The notes beneath the pieces were generated by a model, which did no database searches, had not been told where the DNA came from, and saw only the letters and a list, made by a program, of their open reading frames with translations. This document shows, in pieces, positions 9,816 through 64,000 of a stretch of 64,000 nucleotides of DNA. Within the stretch, counting starts at the first letter, position 1; every line of letters begins with the position of its first letter. The translations under genes were made by a program, and so were the position numbers. Location of the stretch: the NCBI GenBank assembly GCA_035515355.1, contig DATJBL010000064.1, positions 2,269-66,268 of the forward strand, written 5' to 3'. This stretch comes from Methylocella sp. (lineage in GTDB: Bacteria; Pseudomonadota; Alphaproteobacteria; Rhizobiales; Beijerinckiaceae).

Positions 9816-10474
9816 CGGCTCGGCGCAAGCGCACGGCTGTTTTGATTTCCGGACGCGGCTCCAACATGCGAGCTCTGGTCGAGCGCGCACGAGATCCTTC
9901 CTATCCAGCCGAAATTGCGCTTGTTTTGTCGAACCGGCCGGATGCGGCCGGTCTAAGATTCGCCGTGGAAGCCAAAATCGCCTGCGCTGTCACCGACCAC
10001 AAGCTCTATGCCAGCCGGGAGGAGTTCGAACGCTCGATGCAGATCTTGCTCGAATTGCATCGCATCGAGCTGATCTGCCTCGCGGGGTTCATGCGGATGC
10101 TGACGCCCTGGTTCGTCCGCCAGTGGCAGGGGCGGCTCTTGAACATTCACCCGGCGCTCCTGCCCGCCTATCGTGGTCTCGACACCCATGCGCGGGCTCT
10201 GGCGGACGGCGTCAAGATTCATGGTTGCACGGTGCATTTCGTGGTACCGGCCATGGATGAAGGCCCGATTATCGCGCAGGCCGCGGTCGCGGTTCTCGAT
10301 TCCGATACGCCCGAATCCCTTGCCGCACGGGTACTTGCGGAAGAACATGCGATCTATCCGGCGGCGCTTGCCTGCGTCGCAGAAGGGCATCTGCGAATCC
10401 AAGGCAATCGCGTCTTATCTTCGAGCTGCTCCGCGGGTCTGCCCGCACCCTTGCGGTTCCCGTTCAGCGACTAG
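9812..10474 (+). CDS. purN: phosphoribosylglycinamide formyltransferase
   Basis: Overlaps the purM stop by 4 nt. Motifs ISGRGSN and [16 protein letters not shown]. Confidence 0.95.
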
Positions 10475-10493
10475 GTCGGGAATCGCTGATAGA

Positions 10494-10916
10494 CTACCCG
10501 ACGATCTCATTGCCAGAAAACCACTGCGAGATCTCGGCCAAGGCTGTTTCTGGCCCATCCGACCCATGCGCGGAATTCTCGCCAAGCGAGAGCGCAAATT
10601 CTTTGCGAATTGTTCCAGGCTCGGCTTTCGCGGGGTCGGTCGCTCCAAGCATGTCCCGATATTTCTTGATCGCATCCTCGGCTTCGAGCACCTGCACGAC
10701 GACCGGACCCGCTGTCATGGTTTCGACAAGTTTGCCGAAGAAGGGACGCGCCTTGTGGATGGCGTAAAAGGTCTCCGCTTGCTCGCGTGTCATCCGGACG
10801 CGCTTTTGCGCGACGATGCGCAGCCCCGCCTTTTCGATCAGTGCGTTGATCGCTCCGGTGAGGTTTCGCCGGGTCGCATCTGGCTTCAGAATGGAAAAAG
10901 TACGTTCGATCGCCAT
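10494..10916 (-). CDS. ndk: nucleoside-diphosphate kinase
   Basis: [23 protein letters not shown] ... [12 protein letters not shown]. 140-aa Ndk starting at ATG 10916 inside the longer ORF. Confidence 0.95.
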
Positions 10917-11024
10917 GATGTTCCTGGATTGAAGAGAGCCAAAAAATGGGCGCCGCTTAATAGCGAATGTGGTGGCCAATGCAAAGGTGCAGGCTGACCT
11001 TAAGATCAACGGCTTCCACAAGCG

Positions 11025-11615
11025 TCAGTCGAAGTCGTCGGCGAGTTCGCTCCGCATGGCTTCGGGCATAATCGCTATATGGCTGTAAGCGGGATGCTTG
11101 AAACCAACCATGACCTCCGTGCCAGGATTGCGAAACGCGGCGATTTGTCCGGGCGTGAAGCCAAAGTGAACGAATTGAACTGAAGAGGCCTTGCCATCGG
11201 CGCGGGTACGTTCCTGATCGGCCTCCTGCACACCCGCGATGCGCTCGCCGCCGATTGAGAGGAACGCCGTTTCCTCGATCCCGCCAAGACTCCCGAGAAC
11301 GCGTTTGCGCCGATCAGGATCGTCGATCTCGATCATGAAAGTGGCGACAAGTTCCCGGCCCTTGGGGATCAATGGATTATAAGCTTCGAGCTCCTGTTTG
11401 ACCTGCTCGGTACCGCCTCTTTCGATGTAAACCATTTCATGGACCTGGCTCCACATGGTCTGGTAATTCTCGAAATAGAAGGTGACATGGGGGCCGACCT
11501 CGATCCGCCGATTGCGTTTGCGCTCGGCGTTTTTCTTGCGGCTCTCCACCCGGATCTTGCCGTATTCCTCGGGCGTCAGAATATCGCTCGGCGTCAGATT
11601 ATGCTTCTGGTTCAT
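11025..11615 (-). CDS. DUF3501 family protein
   Basis: 196-aa protein from ATG 11615 (MNQKHNLTPSDILTPEEY...). It is the last gene of the rubrerythrin / Fe-S operon, the usual partner context for DUF3501. Confidence 0.7.
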   Translation of the reverse strand: MNQKHNLTPSDILTPEEYGKIRVESRKKNAERKRNRRIEVGPHVTFYFENYQTMWSQVHEMVYIERGGTEQVKQELEAYNPLIPKGRELVATFMIEIDDPDRRKRVLGSLGGIEETAFLSIGGERIAGVQEADQERTRADGKASSVQFVHFGFTPGQIAAFRNPGTEVMVGFKHPAYSHIAIMPEAMRSELADDFD

Positions 11616-11658
11616 GGGCTGCTCCGAAAATCCTCGAAAGCTGCGCGTGGGGCCCTCA

Positions 11659-13005
11659 TCATTTGCCAATCCCATAGGCCTCGGCGATGATTTCGATCGG
11701 ATGCCCGACAAGGCGCGGCTTGTCCCCGGCGCCGCTCTGACGTTCGATTCCTTGCGCGATGTGGAGTCCAGCAAGAGGGCACTCGGAGGTGACGACGGCC
11801 TTGCCGCTTGCGGCTGCCTGCCGTGCGACGGGGGCGCCGACCTTCATGGCCGTTTCGAAATTGGCGTGCTTATAACCCCAGGAACCGCCATGACCGGAGC
11901 ACCGCTCGATCACTTGCAGATTGGCCTCCGGAATGAGTTTCAACATCTCACGGGCCTTTTGACCGATGTTCTGCGCCCGCGAGTGGCAGGAAATATGTAG
12001 GGCGACACCATCGCTCGCGACGGGCTTCAATCCCGGCGCGAGACCCTCCTTGCGGGCGATGTCGACGACATATTCGCTGAGGTCGAAGGTGGATTTTGCC
12101 AGGAGCGCGACGTCCGGGTCCCCCGGCAGAATCAGTGGCCATTCTTGCTTCAACATCAAGGCACAGGATGGCACCGGCGCGATGACGAAATAGCCTTGTT
12201 CGATCCAAGACCGCATCGCGAGGGCGACGGTCTTCGCCGCCTTCGCGACCTCGGCGATATTTCCCTGCTCCAGCATGGGCATGCCGCAGCAATGCGGGTA
12301 CAGAACCTGCGTTTCGACACCGTTCTTTGCAAGCACCGCACGCGCCGAGAGCCCAAGCGCAGGCTCGTTGTAATCAGCAAAGCAGGTCGCATAGATCACC
12401 GCCTTGCGGCCATAGGCCGGAGCCTCGCGGTTAACGGGGGGCGGAGTCTCGCCGCTGATTTTTTCGAACGTCTTCGCCTGGTATTTCGGCAAGGAGGCTT
12501 GCTTGTCGAGACCGGTGACTTTTTCGAGAATGCTCCGGGCGAATTTGTGGGACCGGTCCGTCGCCCAATTTGCGAGCGGCGCGAGAAAACGCGCGAGCTT
12601 GCCGTTGCGGTCGGTCTTGGCAAGCTCGAGGTCCGCCGTCGCAATCTTGCCCCGCTTTGCCTCGACGGCCCGGTAGCGCAGCATCAGATGCGGGAAATCG
12701 AGATTGAATTCATGCGGCGGGACATAGGGGCATTTCGTCATGAAGCACATATCGCAAAGCGTGCAGGCATCGACGACCGGCTTGAAGTCCTTGCTGTCGA
12801 CACCGTCGAGTTCGCCGCTCGGCGTGGCATCGACGAGATCGAAGAGGCGCGGAAAGGAATCACATAGATTGAAGCAGCGGCGGCAGCCATGGCAGATGTC
12901 GAACACCCGCCGCAGTTCCGCATCGAGCTTGGCTTCGTCGTAGAAATCCGGGTTCTGCCAGTCCAACGGGTGTCTGGTTGGAGCGTCGAGACCACCTTCA
13001 CTCAT
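11659..13005 (-). CDS. (Fe-S)-binding protein, heterodisulfide-reductase-related (two 4Fe-4S motifs plus two CCG domains)
   Basis: CHGCRRCFNLCDSFP and CTLCDMCFMTKCPY ferredoxin-type motifs. These are followed by Cys-rich CCG-like segments (CFADYNEP ... CCGMP; CALML ... CSGHGG). Confidence 0.85.
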   Translation of the reverse strand: MSEGGLDAPTRHPLDWQNPDFYDEAKLDAELRRVFDICHGCRRCFNLCDSFPRLFDLVDATPSGELDGVDSKDFKPVVDACTLCDMCFMTKCPYVPPHEFNLDFPHLMLRYRAVEAKRGKIATADLELAKTDRNGKLARFLAPLANWATDRSHKFARSILEKVTGLDKQASLPKYQAKTFEKISGETPPPVNREAPAYGRKAVIYATCFADYNEPALGLSARAVLAKNGVETQVLYPHCCGMPMLEQGNIAEVAKAAKTVALAMRSWIEQGYFVIAPVPSCALMLKQEWPLILPGDPDVALLAKSTFDLSEYVVDIARKEGLAPGLKPVASDGVALHISCHSRAQNIGQKAREMLKLIPEANLQVIERCSGHGGSWGYKHANFETAMKVGAPVARQAAASGKAVVTSECPLAGLHIAQGIERQSGAGDKPRLVGHPIEIIAEAYGIGK

Positions 13006-53458: not shown

Positions 53459-54616
53459 TCAGCGGTCATGGGAACTTTCGCCGGCGACCCAGGTGGCGAG
53501 GACTTCAAGATCTCCGGGACGGAACGCGACAATATCGGCGCGGTATCCTGGAGCGAGCCGGCCAAGAAAATGCCCGAGGCCCAAGAAGTTCGCGGGCTCA
53601 CTCGAGGCGATGGCCAATGCCTGTTCCAATGGCAGACCCAAAAGCTGAATGCAGTTGCGCACCGCGGCTGCCATATTGATTGCCGAACCGGCCAGCGCTC
53701 CCTGCGCTGTCGAGCACCGGCCATCACGGACCGTGATCTTTTGTCCTTGGAGGAAAAATTCCTGTTTGCAACCGCCGACTGGCGGCATCGAATCCGTCAC
53801 GAGCATAGGATGGCCGGTGCCGCCGCGTATTGCGAGCCGAAGCATCGCCGGGGCGACATGTTCGCCATCGACGATCATTCCGTAGAATGCGTTCGGCGAT
53901 TCGAGCGCAGCCGCGATCGGCCCAGGCTCGCGGCTGGAAAGCGGCCGCATCGCGTTGAAGAGATGCGTAAAGCCGGTGAGTCCTTCCGCCATGGCAGCTC
54001 GGGTTTGCAGATAGGTGGCCATGGAATGGCCGAGTGAAACTTTGACCCCCGCGGTGACGAGCTCCGCAATAAAGCCCTGCGGCGTCTCCTCGGGAGCCAG
54101 GGTGACCAGCGACACGCCGTCCCGAAGCCGGGTGAGCATTTGGCGGTGGCGGGGTTCGGGGCGGCGACACAAGTCCGGGCGATGCACCCCGGATTTTTCG
54201 GGCGACAGAAAGGGGCCTTCGAAATGAATCCCAAGCACCCCCGGCTCGCGGGCTATCATCCTCTCGATGGCGCTCAAGGAAGCCGCCATTACTTCGTCGG
54301 TGTCGGTGATCAACGTCGGCAGGAGCGCCGTCGTGCCGAACTTGCGGTGGGCACGGACAATCTTCGAGATGCCTTCTGGCGTCGGATCGGCATTGAATAA
54401 AACGTCGCCTCCACCGTTGACTTGAACATCAATGAAGCCAGGCGCCAGCCATGCACCGGGAGGCAATTTGAATGTTTCACCAAACGCAGACATTTGGCTG
54501 CGCGGCATGAGCGCCCCGATTCGGGACCCTTCGATCACTACGACGCTGTCGCGGTGGGTCACCGCACCATCGAAGATGAAGTCCGCGGCAATCGCGTGTC
54601 GATCACAGCCGCTCAT
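53459..54616 (-). CDS. nagA: N-acetylglucosamine-6-phosphate deacetylase
   Basis: GFIDVQVNGGGDVLFN, HFEGPFLSPEK and HLFNAM motifs. ATG 54616 overlaps the stop of the upstream SIS gene (ATGA). Confidence 0.9.
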   Translation of the reverse strand: MSGCDRHAIAADFIFDGAVTHRDSVVVIEGSRIGALMPRSQMSAFGETFKLPPGAWLAPGFIDVQVNGGGDVLFNADPTPEGISKIVRAHRKFGTTALLPTLITDTDEVMAASLSAIERMIAREPGVLGIHFEGPFLSPEKSGVHRPDLCRRPEPRHRQMLTRLRDGVSLVTLAPEETPQGFIAELVTAGVKVSLGHSMATYLQTRAAMAEGLTGFTHLFNAMRPLSSREPGPIAAALESPNAFYGMIVDGEHVAPAMLRLAIRGGTGHPMLVTDSMPPVGGCKQEFFLQGQKITVRDGRCSTAQGALAGSAINMAAAVRNCIQLLGLPLEQALAIASSEPANFLGLGHFLGRLAPGYRADIVAFRPGDLEVLATWVAGESSHDR

Positions 54617-55671
54617 CGCGTATGTGTAATTTTCTGCAAGTGACGGGGCTGATCTGCGTCCGTTCCTCGCGCAGCAGATAGACGCACGACCATGGCATAG
54701 AAGCTTTGGATGAGACAAATCGGATCGGTTTCGGGATGATCGGGGGGAAGCGCCGCGAGCCTATTTGGCGTCGTATCATCCATGTCGGTGGTAAACACAG
54801 CTGCTTCCATTTTCCTCAGGTCGTCGGCCAGTTGCCTCATGCTCGTGCTCGCGGCATCGGTCGGCATGAACATCAGAATTGGATAACCTGAAGACACCAG
54901 GGAGATAGGCCCATGTTGGAACTCGGCGCCACTAAAAGCTTCTGCATGGAGATTGGACGTTTCCTTCAATTTCAGCGCCGCCTCTCGCGCAATAGCCAGC
55001 GTCGGGCCTCGCCCAATCGTAACGAGGCTCTCCGCTCCGCTGATATGCTCCACCAGATGGCTCCAATCCAGTTTGCAGGAGGCCGCAAGGCGCTCCGGCA
55101 ATCTTTGCAACGCTGCAGCGAACGCCTCATCCTCGGCCCACAATGCTGTCAGATGCGCCAGAGCCGAAAGCGATGCAATGAAAGTTTTCGTCGCGGGCAC
55201 ACTGAGCTCGGGCCCGGCCGCCATTGGCAAGATAAATTCACAGTTTTGCGCGAGCTCGCTGCCAGTGTCGTTCGTGATGCACGCTGTCACCGCGCCGCAA
55301 GCGCGGGCCGCTGCAGCCTGCTCGATCAGATCGCCACTCATTCCGGATTGCGAAATTGCCAAGAATAGTTGGTCGGCCAAGCACAGCCGCTTTCGGTAAA
55401 CGCTCGCGATGTTCGGTGCCGCTGCCGCGACCGGAATGCCAAGATACCGCTCGATCAAATGCTTCCCGAAGGTCGCCGCATGCGCGGAACTGCCGCGCGC
55501 GCAAGTCACGACCACCTGTGGTGGCTTGTGCCTCAGTCGCGCGACCAATGGAGTCAGATTGGGCGGAAGAATCTGCTCCTGCCGCTTCACGGCTTCTGGA
55601 GCCGCTTTCAATTCGGCACTCATTTGGACGTCGAGCATCATCATCGGATGCTTTACTGTCTGCTGCGTCAC
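54613..55671 (-). CDS. SIS-domain sugar-phosphate isomerase/deaminase (GlmS-C-terminal-like, NagB-II type)
   Basis: Two SIS domains (VVTCARGSSAHAATF ... AISQSGMSGDL ...; TIGRGPTLAIAREAALKLKET ... AEAFSGAEFQHGP). Translationally coupled to nagA. The start is uncertain (several in-frame ATG/GTG codons at 55621-55671). Confidence 0.8.
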   Translation of the reverse strand: MTQQTVKHPMMMLDVQMSAELKAAPEAVKRQEQILPPNLTPLVARLRHKPPQVVVTCARGSSAHAATFGKHLIERYLGIPVAAAAPNIASVYRKRLCLADQLFLAISQSGMSGDLIEQAAAARACGAVTACITNDTGSELAQNCEFILPMAAGPELSVPATKTFIASLSALAHLTALWAEDEAFAAALQRLPERLAASCKLDWSHLVEHISGAESLVTIGRGPTLAIAREAALKLKETSNLHAEAFSGAEFQHGPISLVSSGYPILMFMPTDAASTSMRQLADDLRKMEAAVFTTDMDDTTPNRLAALPPDHPETDPICLIQSFYAMVVRLSAARGTDADQPRHLQKITHTR

Positions 55672-55846
55672 GCCACGTCAATCATCTCACAAAGGTGTGG
55701 GTGAGGCGAGCGGCAAATGCACTGCCGTCGTGTGAGGGCGAAGGACACTCCTGGTTGCGCTTCTATTTGTAATCAGGAGAACCCAACTGGATCGAATGCG
55801 TTTCGCTCTAGCGACGCGTTCGAAAATGACCGCTCAGAGGCTCCTC

Positions 55847-56809
55847 ATGGAAACGGAACGCCCAAGCCCCCGCTATTCCAGGATCGATCTTTGGGAACCA
55901 TCGGAGATCCTGGAAGCGATGATCGAGGGGCAATTTTCAGCCGTCGCTGCCGTGCGAGCCGCACGCCCGGCGATTGAGCGGGCGGCAGTCGCGATCGTGC
56001 GCCGATTAAGCGGCCCCGGACGACTCATTTATGTGGGAGCTGGAACGTCCGGCCGTTTGGCCGTCCAGGACGGGGCGGAACTGATGCCGACGTTTAGCTG
56101 GCCCCAGGACCGACTTTTGCTTCTGGTGGCCGGTGGGAAAGATGCTCTTCTACGAGCGGTCGAAGGCGCCGAGGATCAGGTTGGGCGCGCCGTCGAACTG
56201 GTGCGTCAGCATGGCGTGAACGCGGCTGATGTCATGATTGCGGTAGCGGCGAGCGGGACGACGCCATTTACGGTGGCGTGCTTGCGCGAAGCAAAACGAG
56301 CAGGCGCTCTTACGATCGGCCTTGCGAACAATCGAGAGACCCCGCTTCTGCAGGAAGCCGATCATTCAATCTTCCTCGATACGGGCCCGGAGCCGATCGC
56401 CGGTTCGACTCGGATGAAAGCCGGAACGGCCCAGCGGACTGCCCTGATCTTGCTCTCCTCGCTCGTCATGATTCTCTTCGGCCGGGTCTATGAGGGCCTG
56501 ATGGTGGACGTGCAGGCCTCCAACAAGAAGCTGATCCAAAGAAGTGAAAAGATATTATCGCGGTTGAGCGGCCGCAGCAGCGAGGAAATCTACGACGCTT
56601 TGCACCGAGCCGGAGGGAGCGTCAAGCTCGCCTTTCTCCTTCTGCAAGGTTTTAGCTTGAACGAGGCTGAGACTGCTCTCGATCGCACCCACGGTCACCT
56701 CCGCCGAGCAATGAGTTTGATCGCCGATCTTCGGTCCCCGGCTCCTGATCGCGGCGACACACGTCATGCTGCGAGCGCCGGCTCCGGGGAGCGCGGCACC
56801 CCCGAATAG
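55847..56809 (+). CDS. murQ: N-acetylmuramic acid 6-phosphate etherase
   Basis: METERPSPRYSRIDLW ... YVGAGTSGRLAVQDGAEL ... VAASGTTPF ... GSTRMKAGTAQ. SD AGAGG lies 6 nt before ATG 55847; the ORF is open from 55796. Confidence 0.88.
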   Translation: METERPSPRYSRIDLWEPSEILEAMIEGQFSAVAAVRAARPAIERAAVAIVRRLSGPGRLIYVGAGTSGRLAVQDGAELMPTFSWPQDRLLLLVAGGKDALLRAVEGAEDQVGRAVELVRQHGVNAADVMIAVAASGTTPFTVACLREAKRAGALTIGLANNRETPLLQEADHSIFLDTGPEPIAGSTRMKAGTAQRTALILLSSLVMILFGRVYEGLMVDVQASNKKLIQRSEKILSRLSGRSSEEIYDALHRAGGSVKLAFLLLQGFSLNEAETALDRTHGHLRRAMSLIADLRSPAPDRGDTRHAASAGSGERGTPE

Positions 56810-57477
56810 AAGCAGAAGTGCGATCGTGTCTTGATCTTGGCTAGTGCGGCGACGCTGACTGCAAGCGTCGAGGGGTGGATGATGTGCTCGTCATCTCGTA
56901 CTGGAGCGGCAGAACGAGTGAACATATCAAATCCAGAATTGACGCGCTCCAATGTCCGCTGACGAGGACAGGGAAACTCTTTGGGACCTCACAGACGGCG
57001 GAATTCTTTTCGCCTGACCCGCCTTGGGACTGCACCACAAACTTTAGCGAGGTTATCTTTTATGTTGTGCATCTAATCTTTTCTGACATTATTATGGAAA
57101 GAGTAGGTGCGCATGGCGGCGCGCGCCTGCCAAAGCGCCCCTTAAGAGGCGTTGACCCGCGAGCGGCTTATAGGGTCGCCGGACTTGTCCAAAGCGAGGC
57201 CCCCCAGTCTGGTTTTCAGGTCCCGGGCCGAGGGGCTTTGCTTGGACTTCGTGTTGCCCCCTTTCAACCGCTAACGGCGTTGGTCCTCCTCGGCGGCAAG
57301 CTACTGTCTTAGTTAAGTATTGACACTGGCTCCGCGTCTGATCGTTTTGACCTGGGCTTGTCCCCGCTCTCGCGCTCTGCCAGTCGGCCGTACCGTCGCC
57401 ACCAATTTTTGCTCTGAAACTCGGAACGAGCGCGGTCTAATTTTGTTGAACTGGAGGCCAAGTTAGGGGGTTATCCT

Positions 57478-57615
57478 ATGTCGATCAGCACCATCGTCAT
57501 GATTACCGCACTCATCGCTGCGATCACCGTCCTTCTCATCGGTCTCCGCCCGCCGCCATTGTACGGCCCCCCGGAGAAGGATGACGAGGCGGATAGTCAC
57601 AAACCTACCCACTAG
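57478..57615 (+). CDS. possible 45-aa single-pass membrane peptide
   Basis: Not in the ORF track. SD TAGGGGG lies 7 nt before the ATG. MSISTIVMITALIAAITVLLIGLRPPPLYGPPEKDDEADSHKPTH has a hydrophobic helix followed by a charged tail. No homology known to me. Confidence 0.3.
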   Translation: MSISTIVMITALIAAITVLLIGLRPPPLYGPPEKDDEADSHKPTH

Positions 57616-57828
57616 TGAACTAAAGTTCCGGGCGGCTCTTTCCGTATTCGGTTCCTGGTTTGCGGCCGCCCAGTGGAACCTGACCTGTGGCGGCGGTGAG
57701 CGTTCGCCGGGTGCGAACGTGAGCTTGTTTATTGGGACGTTTTGCCTTGCTTTCGGCGAGGCCGCAGCTTTCTGGACTTGTGCTCCCTTTTTCAGATCGG
57801 TGCCGTCACGGATAGTGCTGGCTATCAG

Positions 57829-58176
57829 CTAAGCGATGAAGGCGTTTGCGAAGAAACTAGTTGCACTGCATAGAAATACGCGCGTCACCATCCGGCAGAG
57901 GGTGCCTGCGAGCGCAAGCAGCTTTTGCCCGGTCCCATTCTTCTGTCCCTCCGGTCCTAGTTCGCATCGCCAAAGCATTTTCTCTGGGTCACATTCATCG
58001 ATCACAAGTGCGATCCCATTCTCCGGCCCATGGGTGAGGAGCCGTTCGAGCACTTCTATTCTTTGTTTATCGCCGGGTATTCCCGCGCCGAGTCTCACCA
58101 TCTCTTTCAGTTCGGCAAGTTCTCGCCGCAGCCGTCTCGTATCCTTGGCGACGCTGATGGTCTCAAGTCCATTCAT
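57829..58176 (-). CDS. hypothetical protein, divergent from the RiPP precursor gene
   Basis: SD GGAGGTG lies 4 nt before ATG 58176 (MNGLETISVAKDTRRLRRELAELKEMV ...). 115 aa. No family recognised. Confidence 0.45.
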   Translation of the reverse strand: MNGLETISVAKDTRRLRRELAELKEMVRLGAGIPGDKQRIEVLERLLTHGPENGIALVIDECDPEKMLWRCELGPEGQKNGTGQKLLALAGTLCRMVTRVFLCSATSFFANAFIA

Positions 58177-58651
58177 GGCCACCTCCACTCCCTCGCGAGC
58201 TTCGAAGCCTGCGTCGGGTAAAATTACCGCCGCTCTCGCGGCAAGCCAGGGCGCCAGCCTGAATTTGGTTGACTATTATTAGTTTTCAATGCAATAACGT
58301 CCTACAATATATTATTAATCATTTACGCGGAGAGAATGCGCTAGACCCATTTGAGTTATGGCAATCAAACAGCGCATCCGCCTCGTTGTGGCGGCAGACG
58401 GCGACCGCGACGATGATGGTTGAATATAGGTCGCGTACTGGAAGGTTTAAGCTATAAGCTGGTGACATGCCGTGGCGTCAACAACCTAGCGGGCATCCCC
58501 AGCAGGCTGAAAATAACTCGATTTGCGAGGGAGGCGGTCACCCATCGGCCGTGCTTGGTGCTGGTGCTGTTCAAAGCATACGAAAAGTGTTACCGATATA
58601 GTCCGGTTGGTCGCGCATTTGTTCGATGGAAGCTAGAGGAGGAACTCTGCT

Positions 58652-59152
58652 ATGTCGCAAACGAAGCGTGCTTCGCAGGGGAAGCGTCCAAGTAAAGCTG
58701 CATCCGTGCTGGGAATGGCCGGGGCTTCTCTGGCAGCATCGACCAGCGGATCAATAGCCGATTTGTCGGTGACGGATATACCGTCGCAGAACACGGTACC
58801 GTTTCAGGTTATTCTCGGCGAAGAGGAAATTTCCGACGTCAGCCTGGCGACGTTCCATGTCTTCGACAAGGAAGACCTCGGAGCACTGGGGTCAGGGATA
58901 CAACTTGCTGCTCGAGGAGGCTGTGGCTGCGGCGGGCATGGCTGTGGCGGCTGCGGACACGGCTGTGGCGGCTGCGGACACGGCGGCTGGGGCGGTAGAG
59001 GCTGCTTTGCACACGGCTGCGGACGCGGCTGCGGTAGAGGCGGTTTTGGTAGAGGCTGCGGCTGTGGCTGGGGAGGCTGCGGCGGCTGCGGCTGGGGGTA
59101 TGGCTGGGGCGGCTGCTGCTTGTCATGGGGAGGTTGTTCCCCCTGGTGTTAG
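58652..59152 (+). CDS. Cys/Gly-rich RiPP precursor peptide (TOMM / linear azole-containing peptide type)
   Basis: Strong SD GAGGAGGA lies 9 nt before the ATG. The 166 aa comprise a 90-aa leader-like region and a 76-aa C-terminus with 17 Cys and about 50% Gly (CGCGGHGCGGCGHGCGGCGH ... GGCCLSWGGCSPWC). It sits immediately upstream of the cyclodehydratase and dehydrogenase genes. Confidence 0.8.
   Translation: MSQTKRASQGKRPSKAASVLGMAGASLAASTSGSIADLSVTDIPSQNTVPFQVILGEEEISDVSLATFHVFDKEDLGALGSGIQLAARGGCGCGGHGCGGCGHGCGGCGHGGWGGRGCFAHGCGRGCGRGGFGRGCGCGWGGCGGCGWGYGWGGCCLSWGGCSPWC
58940..58981 (+). repeat. exact 21-nt tandem duplication inside the precursor core (encodes GCGGCGH x2)
   Basis: ggctgtggcggctgcggacac at 58940-58960 is repeated exactly at 58961-58981. 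The surrounding sequence is a degenerate GGC/TGC/GGN periodic tract. Confidence 0.9.
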
Positions 59153-59252
59153 CCGAGCGGGGGCGATCAGTTTCGGCCCTGCGAATGGCGTCTTGTTTGC
59201 AGTGGTGCGCAGGTGATGCGCCCTTCAGGCGTGCACATGGCGGCCGAGTGAA

Positions 59253-59385: not shown

Positions 59386-61647
59386 ATGACAGGCGATCAC
59401 GGAAACAGCTTTACGCGGCATAATGGCAAAGACGTTCCGCGGTTCGCGCCGAATTTCACTGTCTATGTGCTACCACCCAATATCGTGTGCCTCTATTCTG
59501 AGGACCGGAAGTTCTTGCTTCACGGCGAGCTTTATTGCGCACTCGCCTCCGCGATAGGTGAGGGTGGAAAGAGCTTTCGGGAACTTGTTCGCGAGCTGGA
59601 ACAGGATTTTCCATCCGACAAAATCCACGAAGCCCTGAAGCGGCTGGTCGACCGACGCTATATTCTTCCAGCATCGCGCTCTTCGAATGGCACTGTTGCC
59701 GCCTATTGGGCGAGCCTCGGCCTGTCGCCGGAGATCGCGGAGCGAAATCTCCAGAAATGTCGGGTGCGCGTTCAATCGATCGACGTGGAGGGAGCAACGG
59801 AACTCGGGGCCGCCCTGAGTTGGCTCGGCGTTCGCGTCGTCAAGCGCTCCCCCGACCTGACGGTGACGTTGGTAAATGATTATCTCGAGGGGCGACTGCC
59901 GGAATTGAACCGGCAGCATTTGTCGGACCGCACGCCCTGGGTGCTCGTCCAACCCTCTGGCATTTTTCCCCTGGTGGGGCCGGTGTTCAGACCGGGGCAG
60001 GGCGCCTGCTGGATGTGTCTTGCCGAACGGATGAAAAGGAACCGGGAGGTCAAGGCGCTCCTTGACCGCAAACAGGCCCGCTGCCTCACCGTTTCCCCTT
60101 TGGCTCGGCGCCCCTTTGGAGAGAGTGCCATCCAACTTGCGGCCGTCGAGGTCGCGAAAGCGATCGCCACCGATTTTCGCACGCAATTGTCTGATCACAT
60201 CATCAGTCTTGATCTGTTGGGCTCGACCATCGTGAAGCACCACGTGGCGGCCCGCCCGCAATGTCCGAGCTGCGGTCACAAGAAGCTGCGCGATCCCCGC
60301 CGTGCACCAGTCCCGGTCGAGCTTGGCGTAGGTGGCAAGGTCGTCATGACGAGCGGGGGATACCGAAGCGTTTCGCCATCGGCCACGGTTTCGCGTTTCC
60401 GCAAGCACGTGAGCCCCTTGACCGGCGTGGTCTCGCACCTCGAGAGGATTCAAGCCGATTTGCCCTTGAACACCAACTACTATGCCAAGCACAATTTTTC
60501 GGGGCTGGCCGAGACGGTCAATGAACTTAGGGTAGGGCTGAGCAGCGGCAGCTTCGGCAAGGGCAGCACCGCCGAGCAGGGGGAAGCTAGCGCCCTCATG
60601 GAGGCGATTGAGCGCTATTCCGGAATCTTTCAGGGCGACGAGATCAGAGCAAAGCGGCGGTTTACCGATTTCTCGTCGGGCGAGGCCATTTCTCCGAACA
60701 AAGTCCTGCTGTTCAGCGAGGCGCAATTGCGGCGAGGCCGGGCGCCGACGCCCGGCTCGGACGATTGGGAGGCGATCCCGGCGCTATTCGATCGATCGGC
60801 TGAAATCGAGTGGTCGCCAGTCTGGTCTTTGCGTGACGAACGCTTCAAATATCTTCCGACCAGCCTGTTGTATTTTTTCTACAGAGGCCCTGCCGCCTTC
60901 GCAGCAGATTCCAACGGCTGTGCGGCCGGCAACACGCTCGAGGAGGCAATCGTCCAGGGATTCCTTGAGCTGGTGGAACGGGATGCATACGCCATCTGGT
61001 GGTACGATCGATCGCAGCGGCCGGAATTGGACCTCGATCAGTTCGACGATTCCTACGTCCGCGATCTGCGAAACAAGCTGGCCGAAACCGGCCGCCGGCT
61101 TTGGGTGCTCGACGTCACCAGCGATCTCGGGATTCCGACATTTGTGGCGATAACGCACTGGATGCAAAACGGGCGCGAAAATATCGAATTCGGTTCCGGC
61201 GCCCATTTCGATGCGCGAATCGCCTTGTTGCGTACATTGACGGAGCTTAATCAGTTTCTATCCCTGGGTCTCATGAGCGGTGGGACTGGGGAGAAATCGA
61301 GCCTTGATGGCATCGCTCCATTGCGCCTGCAGGACCATCCCTATTTGACTCCGAGCGGAAATCCGCTGGTCCGACCGGACTTCGGCTCGAAGTTTGGCCA
61401 TTTCGACACGCGCGAGCAGGTGACGGCCTGCGTGCGCCTCGCCAAGCAAGCGGGCCACGATTTCCTCGTCCTCGATCAGACGCGTCCCGACATCGAGGTT
61501 CCGGTCGTCAGAGTAATCGTTCCAGGATTGCGGCATTTCTATCGCCGTTTCGCGCCTGGCCGGCTTTACAATGTGCCGGTAAAGCTCGGATTGCGTGACC
61601 AGCCGCTCAAAGAAAACGAGCTCAATCCGATTCACCCCCATACTTGA
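59386..61647 (+). CDS. fused TOMM cyclodehydratase: leader-binding (RRE) / E1-like domain plus YcaO domain
   Basis: The N-terminal ~320 aa carry a winged-helix-like segment (LHGELYCALASAIGEGGKSFRELVRELEQDFPSDKIHEALKRLVDRRYIL) and paired CxxC motifs (CWMC ... CPSC). The C-terminal ~420 aa are YcaO-like (GKGSTAEQGEASALMEAIERYSG ... SNGCAAGNTLEEAIVQGFLELVERD ... GIPTFVA). Confidence 0.85.
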   Translation: MTGDHGNSFTRHNGKDVPRFAPNFTVYVLPPNIVCLYSEDRKFLLHGELYCALASAIGEGGKSFRELVRELEQDFPSDKIHEALKRLVDRRYILPASRSSNGTVAAYWASLGLSPEIAERNLQKCRVRVQSIDVEGATELGAALSWLGVRVVKRSPDLTVTLVNDYLEGRLPELNRQHLSDRTPWVLVQPSGIFPLVGPVFRPGQGACWMCLAERMKRNREVKALLDRKQARCLTVSPLARRPFGESAIQLAAVEVAKAIATDFRTQLSDHIISLDLLGSTIVKHHVAARPQCPSCGHKKLRDPRRAPVPVELGVGGKVVMTSGGYRSVSPSATVSRFRKHVSPLTGVVSHLERIQADLPLNTNYYAKHNFSGLAETVNELRVGLSSGSFGKGSTAEQGEASALMEAIERYSGIFQGDEIRAKRRFTDFSSGEAISPNKVLLFSEAQLRRGRAPTPGSDDWEAIPALFDRSAEIEWSPVWSLRDERFKYLPTSLLYFFYRGPAAFAADSNGCAAGNTLEEAIVQGFLELVERDAYAIWWYDRSQRPELDLDQFDDSYVRDLRNKLAETGRRLWVLDVTSDLGIPTFVAITHWMQNGRENIEFGSGAHFDARIALLRTLTELNQFLSLGLMSGGTGEKSSLDGIAPLRLQDHPYLTPSGNPLVRPDFGSKFGHFDTREQVTACVRLAKQAGHDFLVLDQTRPDIEVPVVRVIVPGLRHFYRRFAPGRLYNVPVKLGLRDQPLKENELNPIHPHT

Positions 61648-63121
61648 AGGTGATCTCGGCTTGCGCGCTCCCGAACCAAAGAGAGTGCGTCGGGCCGCGT
61701 CGGCGACCATTTCCGCCCGGCTCGGTGGTCGCGTCACGCTCGAAACGCACGCGACTGGAGAAATCATCGCCTGCTTCGATGGCTATTCGGTCGGCTTGGG
61801 AATGTTCAGCGCCAGCGCGGCGGATCGGGCGCGGGATCTGCGCACGGGTCTTCCACTCGCCTCATTTGTGGGCAGCCGCCGGAACATTGACAAAGAGATT
61901 GATCTTTTGGTCCGGCGATTGGCCAGCCGCGGTCTGTTGGAATACCGCCTTGGGGGCTCGCGCAATGGAGAGGACCTGCTCGTCATCGAACCGCAGGTTC
62001 CCGATTATTGGCCGCGAACGCCGCAGCTCGGCAACTCAGACGCTCTCGTCTTGTCACGGTTCGCGTACCTTCGACGGCGCGGTAACGAGATGGTCCTGGA
62101 ATCGCCGCGCGCCGGCGCCTTGTTCAAAATTTGCGATCCGAAGATTGCGGCCACCTTGGCCATGCTCTCTACTCCGCAACAAATCAAACAGCTGCGTCGG
62201 CTGGATGGTTTTCCAGGGGTCGAGCTTCTTGGCCTGCTCCTTGATTGCCAAATCGTTTTCAAGATCGACGTCGCCGGTGAAAGTGGCCTTCGACCGGCCG
62301 AGGGTGACCACAACCTCGTTCTTTGGGACTTTCACGATCTTCTATTCCACACGCGCAGCACGGAAGGCCGGCACGCCAACCCGCTGGGCGGAGTTTATCC
62401 GTATGCCGGCGTCATTTCTCCGCTGCCGGCGGTGCGGCCCCGCTGGCCCGGAAAAAAAATCGATCTGCGCAAGTTCTTGGCCGCTCATCCAGCGGCAATC
62501 TCGCCGGTCGCAAAGCTTCTGCGGGAGCGTCGTTCGACGCGTAGCTTTGATGACCACCGACCGATCACGCTCGCCGAGCTTTCGGCGTTTCTCGACGGCA
62601 CCGCGCGGGTCCTGTCGACCGCGAGCAGCGAGCCCGGCCACGACGACGGCGGTCACACCGTCAGACCATATCCGTCGGCGGGCGGCAGCTACGAGCTCGA
62701 GCTCTATCTAGCGGTCGACAAATGCGAGGGACTTGCACGAGGCTTCTATCATTACGATGCCAGCGCCCACGCATTGGTACCGATCGGCGTTTCCCCGCAT
62801 GAGCTCGAAGTGCAGTTGATGGGAGGCGAATATTCAACGGGTGCACCCGCTGCGCCCCAGATCTTGATCACGATCGCTGCGCGCTTTGGCCGGATTTCAT
62901 GGAAGTACAGCTCGATCGCCTATTCGCTCATTTTGAAGGACGTCGGTGTATTAATGCAAACGCTCTACCTAATGGCGACCGACATGGGGCTCGGCGGCTG
63001 TGCGATCGGGATCACGAATATCGATCTGTTCTCAAAGATGACGGGGATCGAATTCCATGTCGAGGGCCCTGTCGGTCAATTTGCGATCGGCCGCGGCGTG
63101 AAAACGGGGGCTTCCGACTGA
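61595..63121 (+). CDS. SagB/ThcOx-type FMN-dependent dehydrogenase (azoline oxidase)
   Basis: Nitroreductase-fold motifs LRERRSTRSF, RPYPSAGGSYELELYL, GFYHYDASAHALV and LKDVGVLMQTLYLMATDMGLGGCAIG. GTG 61595 overlaps the YcaO gene end by 53 nt. An alternative GTG lies at 61685. Confidence 0.85.
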   Translation: MTSRSKKTSSIRFTPILEGDLGLRAPEPKRVRRAASATISARLGGRVTLETHATGEIIACFDGYSVGLGMFSASAADRARDLRTGLPLASFVGSRRNIDKEIDLLVRRLASRGLLEYRLGGSRNGEDLLVIEPQVPDYWPRTPQLGNSDALVLSRFAYLRRRGNEMVLESPRAGALFKICDPKIAATLAMLSTPQQIKQLRRLDGFPGVELLGLLLDCQIVFKIDVAGESGLRPAEGDHNLVLWDFHDLLFHTRSTEGRHANPLGGVYPYAGVISPLPAVRPRWPGKKIDLRKFLAAHPAAISPVAKLLRERRSTRSFDDHRPITLAELSAFLDGTARVLSTASSEPGHDDGGHTVRPYPSAGGSYELELYLAVDKCEGLARGFYHYDASAHALVPIGVSPHELEVQLMGGEYSTGAPAAPQILITIAARFGRISWKYSSIAYSLILKDVGVLMQTLYLMATDMGLGGCAIGITNIDLFSKMTGIEFHVEGPVGQFAIGRGVKTGASD

Positions 63122-63199: not shown

Positions 63200-64000
63200 T
63201 TAATCTGCAGGGTTCCCGGCTTTGCCAAGACCCCGCGCATCGGAGGGATCGTGCGATGCGTCGCGCACGAAATACCCAATAGCTTTGCGAATGCGCCTAT
63301 CCAGCAGCGCGAATATGGCGCCTTGAGGGTCCGTGCAATGGACGATCCAAGCGCCGCCGGGTACTGCAGTCGGGCCATAGAGAATTTGGCCGCCGCCGGC
63401 CTCCACGCGCTTTGCCGCCGCCTCAATGTTGCCAATGTTGAAATAGTAAAGCCAGAAGGGAAGCGGCAACGTCGGAGGCTTCGTGAACATGCCGCCGATC
63501 GTCTCCCCTCCAGCGGAGAACTGCTGATACGTGCCCATCGCGCCGACTTGGGCATTCGCTTTTTGCCAGCCAAATACCTCGCCGTAGAAAGCGAACGCCT
63601 TCTCCCAGTCGGCGGCGAGCAACTCATGCCAGCCTACACGCCCCGGTGTGCCCAGCGCGGCGGACTTCTCTTGGCCCGGTTTCAGCCCTTTGACCAACGC
63701 AAGCGTTGCCATCTGCGGGTCGGCAACGACCGAAAAGCGGCTGATGTTGGGGACATCCATCGGTGGGACCTGCACCACTCCGCCAAGCTGCTTAGTCCGG
63801 TCGACGGCAGCGTCCACGTCGTCGACTCCGACATATCCAACCCAGTGCGGCATCACGCCCGTTCTCCTCGCGTCCTCCGGCAGGTTCATCAGCCCGGTGA
63901 CGGGAGTGTCTCCAACGGTAAACAGGCTATAAGTGAAGCCAGGCATCGAGGCATCGCGCGTACCCCAGCCCACGAGATTGGCGTAGAAGGCCTTGGCGGC
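63200..64000 (-). CDS. two-domain VOC (glyoxalase / bleomycin-resistance fold) family protein; 5' end beyond the window
   Basis: The frame stays open to base 64000 (... AAKAFYANLVGWGTRDASMPGFTYSLF ...). Two repeated halves each carry a W-x-E/H ... FY ... FGW pattern typical of VOC proteins. Confidence 0.8.
   Translation of the reverse strand, partial: AAKAFYANLVGWGTRDASMPGFTYSLFTVGDTPVTGLMNLPEDARRTGVMPHWVGYVGVDDVDAAVDRTKQLGGVVQVPPMDVPNISRFSVVADPQMATLALVKGLKPGQEKSAALGTPGRVGWHELLAADWEKAFAFYGEVFGWQKANAQVGAMGTYQQFSAGGETIGGMFTKPPTLPLPFWLYYFNIGNIEAAAKRVEAGGGQILYGPTAVPGGAWIVHCTDPQGAIFALLDRRIRKAIGYFVRDASHDPSDARGLGKAGNPAD

Follow-up and report, generated by a model that had tools for sequence, protein, structure and literature searches.

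A predicted polythiazole peptide precursor with a signal-peptide-like N-terminus in Methylocella and other Rhizobiales

Nearly all that is known of azole-forming YcaO systems concerns the production of small antibiotics or toxins, for which dedicated exporters and proteases are required. These systems include the cyanobactin pathways, with the cyclodehydratases LynD, TruD, PatD and MusD and the oxidases ThcOx and CyaGox, and the pathway of microcin B17, in which the precursor has a leader of 26 residues. Precursors of peptides that are made by ribosomes and modified after translation (RiPPs) with signal peptides for the general secretion (Sec) pathway have been described for bufferins and oxazolins, which are modified by MNIO enzymes (PMC12452194). 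Here we describe a gene in a 64,000-nucleotide stretch of DNA from Methylocella sp. (GenBank assembly GCA_035515355.1, contig DATJBL010000064.1, positions 2,269 to 66,268), the whole of which is referred to as the window and provides the coordinates used below. The open reading frame (ORF) at 58652..59152 on the + strand encodes a protein of 166 residues plus a stop codon. On balance, we favour the interpretation that it is the precursor of a thiazole-rich RiPP, encoded in a compact module together with a LynD-like cyclodehydratase, a ThcOx-like oxidase and a vicinal oxygen chelate (VOC) protein, and that the peptide would be modified in the cytoplasm and exported by the Sec pathway.

The ORF is a real, conserved protein-coding gene. 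Its ATG is located 9 nt behind the Shine-Dalgarno sequence GAGGAGG (58636..58642, + strand), and the intervening spacer AACTCTGCT (58643-58651) is almost invariant in alignments of upstream regions. Two observations support the start codon: the alignment of homologues begins at residue 1, and the stretch from the Shine-Dalgarno sequence to the ATG is nearly unchanged among them. In a codon alignment of 41 type-A genes, which comprised the window gene and 40 homologues, the differences per site at codon positions 1, 2 and 3 were 0.088, 0.048 and 0.362 in the first ten residues of the Gly/Cys-rich tail and 0.117, 0.102 and 0.305 in its last 26 residues, and each of the other precursor segments had a third-position bias of the same kind. 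Therefore, the annotated frame is under purifying selection at the protein level, and the overlapping ORFs in alternative frames are artefacts, as the preliminary description of this sequence had held. The codon-position test and the conservation of the family rule out that the precursor itself is non-coding or a compositional artefact. Script counts reproduced the division proposed earlier into a leader of 90 residues without Cys and a 76-residue tail (residues 91-166; 58922..59149, + strand), the predicted core, which is identical to the string quoted at that time. The tail contains 17 Cys, 37 Gly (48.7%), 6 Trp, 4 His, 4 Arg, only 2 Ser and no Thr, and Gly stands before 15 of the 17 Cys, in agreement with the earlier remarks on the placing of Cys and the scarcity of hydroxylated residues. 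AlphaFold2 predicted neither a fold nor secondary structure for the precursor (pLDDT 45), as expected of a peptide substrate.

The gene immediately downstream, starting 233 nt after the precursor (59386..61647, + strand), encodes a fused E1-like/YcaO cyclodehydratase of 753 residues with an N-terminal winged-helix domain of the RiPP recognition element (RRE) type. The protein contains the domains PF21084 (residues 21-93) and PF02624 (residues 391-716) and scores 235.9 bits against TIGR03604 (cut-off 219.25) and 143.1 bits against TIGR03882, the leader-binding domain of thiazole/oxazole-modified microcins (TOMMs; cut-off 36.9). Its full length can be aligned with LynD (4v1t, E 2.4e-153, query residues 19-749), TruD and MusD (E to 2.6e-141), and the catalytic block SNGxAAGNTLEEAIxQGFxELVERD is present in this alignment. 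The YcaO protein is 83-92% identical over the 120 best clusters, and NCBI gives it the generic name 'TOMM precursor leader peptide-binding protein'. The third gene (61661..63121, + strand) encodes a SagB/ThcOx-type dehydrogenase with flavin mononucleotide (FMN) as cofactor, an azoline oxidase that has ThcOx and nitroreductase domains and matches PF22767, PF00881 and TIGR03605 (172.9 bits, cut-off 78.4). Its nearest solved structures are those of CyaGox (5lq4 and 8pz5, E 8e-56), and McbC is distant (E 2.5e-6). The longest ORF of the dehydrogenase begins with GTG at 61595, overlapping the YcaO gene, and TTG at 61661, which follows AAGGTG, is the likelier start.

The association of the precursor with the enzyme pair is conserved. 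We compared 80 genome homologues, 77 of which have complete sequences, at the level of their loci, using tblastn searches with the window proteins and all-against-all clustering of ORFs; 45 complete linked loci (44 and the window) were found. In all 45, the order and orientation of the precursor, YcaO and oxidase genes are unchanged, with the precursor directly upstream and a median gap of 254 nt between it and the YcaO gene, which supports the earlier reading of the ORF as a precursor gene whose product azole-forming enzymes would modify. Apart from these genes and the VOC gene, nothing is conserved around the 45 linked loci, and the recurring neighbours include no gene for a transporter, a protease, a regulator or metal handling. 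The flanking genes vary from locus to locus and include transposases at some of them. A plasmid origin of the window was considered and set aside, as a megablast search of PLSDB returned no match.

The sequence features of TOMMs, or linear azole-containing peptides, are all present: the YcaO cyclodehydratase with E1-like/RRE fusion, the SagB-type dehydrogenase, and the Cys-free leader followed by a Cys-rich core. The module is most similar to cyanobactin pathways in its enzymes, since the cyclodehydratase aligns along its entire length, including the N-terminal peptide-binding domain, and the oxidase is CyaGox-like. In contrast to cyanobactin clusters, no PatA/PatG-type proteases are found beside the module in the window or conserved in the 45 loci, macrocyclisation signals are absent, the host is an alphaproteobacterium, and the 166-residue precursor has a signal-like N-terminus and one long Gly/Cys tail instead of short cassettes. 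Microcin B17 likewise has a Gly/Cys-rich precursor tail, with Cys mainly after Gly, encoded beside the genes of a YcaO cyclodehydratase and a SagB-type dehydrogenase. It differs in that McbB, McbC and McbD correspond to a fused C-D enzyme here, that no McbEF-type exporter, McbG-type immunity gene or pentapeptide-repeat gene is conserved at the loci studied here, and that the leader here is about 90 residues long with a Sec-like start and the tail has conserved ends. Bufferins and oxazolins share with the module long Cys-rich precursors, a Sec-type (here signal-like) N-terminus, minimal clusters without exporter or protease, and stand-alone precursor genes (PMC12452194). However, the heterocycles of bufferins are formed by an MNIO (DUF692) enzyme with a DUF2063 partner rather than by YcaO and an FMN oxidase, and the sequences are not related; no MNIO (DUF692), DUF2063, DUF2282 or Buf_6/12Cys Pfam domain was found in the module, and the likeness is functional and architectural only.

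Long leaders, repetitive Cys-rich cores or both also occur next to YcaO enzymes in the heterocycloanthracin/sonorensin, NHLP and Nif11 families, and 'anabaenasin' TOMM precursors have been described as Gly- and Cys-rich (PMC4603692). Unlike these, the precursor matches no leader model, and their hosts belong to a different phylum. The comparison that the preliminary description had proposed with NHLP (TIGR03793), Nif11 (TIGR03798) and heterocycloanthracin (TIGR03601) was run, and none of the three matches even at E<=10. A search of NCBIfam with the whole precursor or the leader alone returned no model at E<=10, except for one irrelevant match at 0.14, and no Pfam model matched the precursor. 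No description of the family was found in the literature searched, and the nine uncharacterised groups of the 2015 TOMM census include neither the family nor its host genera (PMC4603692).

The family is large. A search with the first 100 residues returned 742 homologues, all of them unnamed and mainly from soil metagenomes, and when one genome was scanned for each species, at least 372 of these genomes had a relative. In an exhaustive HMMER search, the 90-residue leader alone matched 809 clusters at 50% identity (E<=1e-3), and the match was invariably at the N-terminus of the protein. The hosts belong to the Beijerinckiaceae (Methylocella, Methylocapsa acidiphila B2, M. polymorpha RX1 and Methylovirgula), Roseiarcus and the Xanthobacteraceae, including Bradyrhizobium. 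Most of them originate from acid soils and peat, and there are methanotrophs among them (M. acidiphila and M. polymorpha). Database copies of the precursor are often frameshifted inside the GC-rich repeats, which results in poly-Ala or RRL-repeat tails (P0003, P0098, P0367, P0437, P0500 and others; loci L020, L027, L041, L051 and L058), and the gene is often shortened or missed by gene callers (L082, L085 and L086). The family is hidden from annotation because of these two effects. The frameshifted copies may be sequencing or assembly errors or may reflect genuine slippage. A profile for the precursor family would improve the mining of RiPPs in soil metagenomes.

The most conserved part of the leader, with the lowest non-synonymous rate within it, is the acidic/hydrophobic motif ILGEEEISDVSLATFHVFDKEDL (residues 54-76; 58811..58879, + strand). 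Nine of its residues are invariant (E58, I60, D62, V63, L65, A66, T67, F68 and F71), and its consensus is LGEEEISDVSLATF(H/Y)(L/V)FDKE, which can also be written EEEISDVSLATFHxFDKE. All 80 genome homologues have the motif, even where no YcaO gene is near. This patch had been singled out as a plausible RRE recognition element, and its conservation, together with the N-terminal winged-helix RRE-type domain of the heterocyclase, strengthens its candidacy as the sequence that the enzyme would recognise. The PatE recognition sequence LAELSEEAL of cyanobactin precursors has a similar acidic/hydrophobic flavour. The linker between the hydrophobic stretch near the N-terminus and the motif is variable and contains insertions. 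The first 75 residues are free of Cys in 73 of the 77 complete homologues; of the other four, two have irregular tails as well. The leader ends in the junction QLAARGG (residues 84-90; 58901..58921, + strand), in which Q84, A87 and G90 are invariant and R88 nearly so; it is a possible, speculative leader-cleavage site.

The tail consists of conserved ends and a middle that varies by repeats. Few parts of the protein are as conserved as the first ten residues of the tail, CGCG(H)GCGG, and its last approximately 26 residues, GWGGCGGCG...GGCCLSWGGCxxC, the terminal Cys of which is invariant; the tail is thus not a freely varying core. The middle is built of GCGG(R/H/F) repeats in variable copy number. 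In the window, a tandem array with a period of 21 nt and 3.1 copies (58919..58984, + strand) encodes GCGGCGH units, and positions 58940-58960 are exactly duplicated at 58961-58981. Among 57 type-A members, the tail is 33-88 residues long, with 11-20 Cys, 0-6 His (median 1) and a more constant number of Arg (2-10). The suggestion that the core evolves by repeat slippage is upheld by the exact duplication and by the shifts of tail length through gain and loss of repeats; it is supported further because the number of GCGGCGH units differs between close relatives and many database copies are frameshifted in the repeats.

Residues 1-30 (58652..58741, + strand) resemble a signal peptide, with a basic n-region MSQTKRASQGKRPSK (net charge +5) followed by an h-region AASVLGMAGASLAAS. 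K11 and R12 are invariant in the family alignment, and the n-region has a net charge of at least +4 in all 77 complete sequences, with a median of +6. The best mean Kyte-Doolittle hydrophobicity over 12 residues has a family median of 1.96, and the value of 1.54 in the window copy is the lowest of the family. Thresholds of hydrophobicity >=1.9 and charge >= +3, used as a signal heuristic, are reached together by 61% of the family compared with 3% of control ORFs. Distant members have a textbook Sec-type signal with an AxA-type cleavage region, e.g. KRKRRSKALPVLGAAGLSLSLASGASA|V, ...LSLSLASGASA|V and ...GGATASASA|P. Scored only heuristically against the Sec pattern (a positively charged n-region, a hydrophobic h-region of about 10-15 residues and small residues at -3/-1 of a cleavage site), the window copy has an n-region charge of +5 and an h-region mean of 1.54, and its AxA site is not clear. 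The signal-like start of the leader pointed out in the preliminary description is thus conserved throughout the family. Its view that a signal on a cytoplasmically matured precursor is an oddity stands in so far as such signals are rare, and the authors of the bufferin study also term a signal peptide on a RiPP precursor highly unusual; the feature is not unique, since bufferins and oxazolins provide a precedent (PMC12452194). Bufferins are the only experimentally supported precedent among RiPPs for Sec export after modification. As the module contains neither exporter nor protease and the N-terminus is tripartite like a signal peptide, Sec export after modification would be the simplest route.

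Based on the domains, motifs and gene order, a mechanism can be proposed. A strong ribosome-binding site of its own would allow abundant synthesis of the peptide. The motif EEEISDVSLATFHVFDKE (residues 56-73) would be bound in the cytoplasm by the winged-helix RRE domain of the cyclodehydratase, by homology with LynD and TruD. The YcaO domain would then use ATP to cyclodehydrate Cys residues of the tail, 15 of 17 of which are in Gly-Cys context, to thiazolines, and the FMN oxidase would convert the thiazolines to thiazoles. Residues 1-30 would serve as the Sec signal peptide, and the modified, still linear chain would cross the inner membrane, as in bufferins. A second cut at the QLA(A)RGG junction may release the tail. 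The result would be a cationic, Gly-rich polythiazole peptide of unusual length (about 76 to 135 residues) with its site of action outside the cytoplasm. We infer each of these events, namely the residues modified, the binding of the motif by the RRE domain, Sec export and any cleavage, from sequence, and the modification from gene context. We lean slightly, and with weak conviction, towards a protective role of the peptide in the envelope or periplasm, such as metal or redox buffering, over that of a secreted antimicrobial; this role would be consistent with an architecture like that of bufferins, a wide and conserved distribution, tail ends that are conserved, and the stand-alone and BA14K paralogues described below.

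Several observations weigh against this mechanism or the proposed role. The h-region of the window copy is the least hydrophobic of the family, and the charge of the n-region (+5 to +7) is above that of typical Sec signals. A cut at approximately residue 30 would leave a 60-residue acidic propiece with no protease at hand to remove it. The VOC partner would be ill explained by a periplasmic buffer and would fit better as an immunity protein. Furthermore, 21 of the 80 homologues lie at a distance of over 10 kb from YcaO and oxidase genes alike, with no conservation of their neighbours, and in L016 a copy of the BA14K type (10001-10549) lies beside a decayed YcaO fragment (about 10585-10900). 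On account of the stand-alone copies and of this BA14K copy, the protein family may work without azole formation in some lineages.

The stand-alone copies that can be assigned to a named genus are all from Bradyrhizobium (B. lablabi, unnamed strains and metagenome-assembled genomes), a genus in which the enzyme pair does occur, in B. erythrophlei. They keep the N-terminus and the motif intact. Genomes with such copies include Bradyrhizobium sp. McL0615 (NZ_CP188254.1), B. lablabi CCBAU 23086 and the metagenome-assembled genome OY969582.1, in which there are two. No extra genes for transport, proteolysis, metal homeostasis or regulation are conserved around 24 stand-alone loci. One apparent stand-alone copy (L036) is accounted for by an integrase-carrying insertion just past the gene: a phage-type integrase gene (10916-12172) follows the precursor directly, at the usual start of the YcaO gene, and the interval that separates the precursor and YcaO genes may be a hotspot for integration. 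In Bradyrhizobium sp. McL0615 (L045), an ORF of 683 residues of the radical-SAM type, with a CxxxCxxC motif (10832-12883), follows the stand-alone copy, and this neighbour is not conserved at other stand-alone loci. In some paralogues, the same N-terminal module is followed by a Gly/Cys/Tyr-rich middle and a C-terminal BA14K domain (PF07886, E 3e-11 and 1.4e-13; L043 and L054), as known from BA14K-like proteins of Rhizobiales. In L043, such a paralogue and a type-A precursor stand in tandem ahead of the enzymes (10001-10540 and 11380-11868). The window protein, in contrast to these paralogues, has no BA14K domain at E<=5 and a C-terminus of the CCLSWGGCxxC type. Because 21 of 80 homologues lack a nearby YcaO gene and some paralogues end in BA14K, the N-terminal module is not tied exclusively to an adjacent cyclodehydratase. 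It is the defining unit of the family, able to carry different Cys-rich tails.

The fourth gene of the module is one of the reasons to consider a secreted antimicrobial similar to microcin B17 or phazolicin, a reading that we regard as possible but rather unlikely. On the - strand at 63200..64000, in a frame open to the window end so that the gene is cut at its 5' end, it encodes a two-domain VOC protein of the glyoxalase/bleomycin-resistance fold, which resembles Rv0577 of M. tuberculosis (E 3e-30) and has weak Ble-like_N matches. The gene accompanies the module in 42 of the 45 complete loci, downstream and convergent in the window, and upstream and divergent in Bradyrhizobium erythrophlei and a related metagenome contig (L086), so it moves with the module even when rearranged. 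The VOC protein could be an immunity or binding protein, and in the antimicrobial scenario, with the cationic polythiazole tail as a bacteriocin that leaves through Sec, it would be the cytoplasmic immunity factor of the producer and would sequester modified peptide, as bleomycin-binding VOC proteins do with their ligand. The enzymology and the Gly-Cys context are like those of azole antibiotics; the tail, with Arg and His and no acidic residue, behind a strongly acidic propiece follows a layout common in precursors of antimicrobial peptides; and the variable flanks with occasional transposases suggest mobility. However, the conserved neighbours include no dedicated exporter, leader protease, or pentapeptide- or ABC-type immunity gene. 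The tail ends and the enzymes are strongly conserved over hundreds of species, unlike the strain-specific, fast-changing cores of most bacteriocins, and stand-alone and BA14K-fused paralogues fit poorly with an antimicrobial.

Metal binding in the periplasm or envelope, by a YcaO-made analogue of bufferins or a chalkophore-like peptide, overlaps with the mechanism that we prefer; as a specific function it is tentative and would be somewhat surprising. Thiazole nitrogens, leftover thiols, His and Trp would serve as ligands. Azole-containing cyanobactins such as patellamides bind Cu(II), and the invariant C-terminal CC..C..C resembles a binding site. The hosts are Beijerinckiaceae and Xanthobacteraceae of acid soil and peat, including the methanotrophs Methylocapsa acidiphila and M. 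polymorpha. The Sec-type N-terminus, the lack of an exporter and the stand-alone precursors have all been reported for bufferins, for which copper binding was shown (PMC12452194). Nevertheless, the metal-chelating role put forward in the preliminary description gained no positive evidence: His is not conserved, no gene for copper or other metal homeostasis recurs beside the module, and no known metal-regulator operator was recognised upstream of the precursor. Complete conversion of Cys to thiazole would also eliminate the thiolate ligands. The cluster is, moreover, present in Methylocella, which is not known to have the copper enzyme particulate methane monooxygenase.

The export step can be questioned separately. 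The first 30 residues might be part of a long cytoplasmic leader rather than a signal, with the product leaving through an unlinked transporter or staying inside the cell. The weak h-region of the window copy and its unclear AxA site agree with this possibility, and most known YcaO RiPPs use dedicated transporters. On the other hand, the tripartite pattern has been kept in over 800 sequence clusters and takes its canonical form in distant members, no transporter is linked to the module, and the same N-terminal module is fused to the BA14K domain, so we consider a purely cytoplasmic leader doubtful. It is more improbable still that the family is an ordinary secreted Gly/Cys-rich envelope family related to BA14K, not or only incidentally an enzyme substrate and with the EEEISDVSLATF motif as a propiece, chaperone or sorting element: the 21 of 80 homologues without a nearby YcaO gene do retain the motif, and BA14K-ending paralogues share the entire N-terminal module, one of them persisting by a decayed YcaO gene, but the precursor is co-linear with the heterocyclase and immediately upstream of it in all 45 complete linked loci, its tail with Cys after Gly and almost no Ser or Thr suits such enzymes, the module offers no other candidate substrate, and the stand-alone copies could be explained by modification in trans or recent loss, given the enzymes of B. 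erythrophlei, and by insertion in L036.

Returning to the preferred interpretation, a modified and Sec-exported precursor, what appears to be new here is a YcaO-type azole RiPP whose long precursor would carry a Sec-like signal and belongs to no described leader family. The four-gene module has neither a dedicated exporter nor a protease and is widespread: relatives occur in the genomes of at least 372 species, and Methylocella, Methylocapsa, Methylovirgula, Roseiarcus and Bradyrhizobium are among the genera represented. If Sec export is true, the 'signal-peptide RiPP' principle would be extended from MNIO to YcaO enzymes, raising the question of how premature export is prevented, and the family would provide the first azole-type modified peptide that is apparently exported by the general secretion pathway. 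We speculate, with considerable reserve, that the N-terminal module, the Sec signal together with EEEISDVSLATF, is a general tag for modification in the cytoplasm followed by export, present in more than 800 clusters of Rhizobiales, and that the protein-sized polythiazoles made by the cyanobactin-type enzyme pair and sent out by Sec, as a YcaO-made counterpart of bufferins, buffer copper, other metals or oxidants in the periplasm or envelope of acid-soil bacteria, among them methanotrophs. In that case, they would be the first class of azole RiPPs to combine Sec export with a physiological instead of an antibiotic role. With Methylocapsa acidiphila B2, M. polymorpha RX1 and Bradyrhizobium erythrophlei available as cultured hosts, these questions are open to direct tests.

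The DNA upstream of the precursor gene is also conserved. Alignments of 42 and of 20 upstream regions delimit a stretch at 58570..58629 (+ strand) with two boxes. Box 1 (58570-58592) reads TTCAAAGC(A/G)xACGAAAAGTG(T/C)TA, i.e. TTCAAAGCxxACGAAAAGTGyTA, and box 2 (58610-58629) reads GTCGCGCATTTGTTCGATGG, i.e. GTCGCGCATTTGTTCGAxGG. The upstream region has no Rfam match at E<=1, no conserved RNA structure and no sigma-70 consensus on the + strand, and the boxes correspond to no known operator that we recognised, including those of the metal-regulator type. A riboswitch or other RNA element was dropped as an explanation, with neither an Rfam match (E<=1) nor a conserved 5' structure in its favour. 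The boxes are probably a promoter or operator, which could be specialised.

Downstream of the window precursor, an intrinsic terminator or attenuator was considered and rejected: the intergenic fold has z = -1.2, and a scan of the region gave results no better than those of shuffled sequences. Among the relatives, hairpins are frequent after the precursor gene, yet the median z is only -0.6. In many of the loci L002-L079, the first 70 nt past the stop codon contain two conserved hairpins, GCGCCTTGCG...CGCAAGGCG and CCGGGTTTGACC..GGTTCGACCCGG. The hairpin of the window at 59156-59189 is different from these and weaker. The hairpins after the precursor may act as an attenuator and thereby fix how much precursor is made relative to the enzymes.

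Further upstream, the window contains a set of genes for recycling of amino sugars and the cell wall (53459-56809), which consists of nagA (53459-54718, - strand), nagB-II (54613-55671, - strand) and murQ (55796-56809, + strand); none of the three is linked to the module elsewhere. The gap of about 1.8 kb between murQ and the precursor (56810-58650) contains nothing that is conserved in related loci and no convincing gene, just short overlapping ORFs. One of them, at 57829-58188 on the - strand (119 residues), has no NCBIfam match and, in Pfam, a single weak one below threshold (Wbp11, E 3.3e-4). The gap is of lower G+C content and has a strong excess of T on the + strand, with an AT skew of about -0.2 at 57000-58000.

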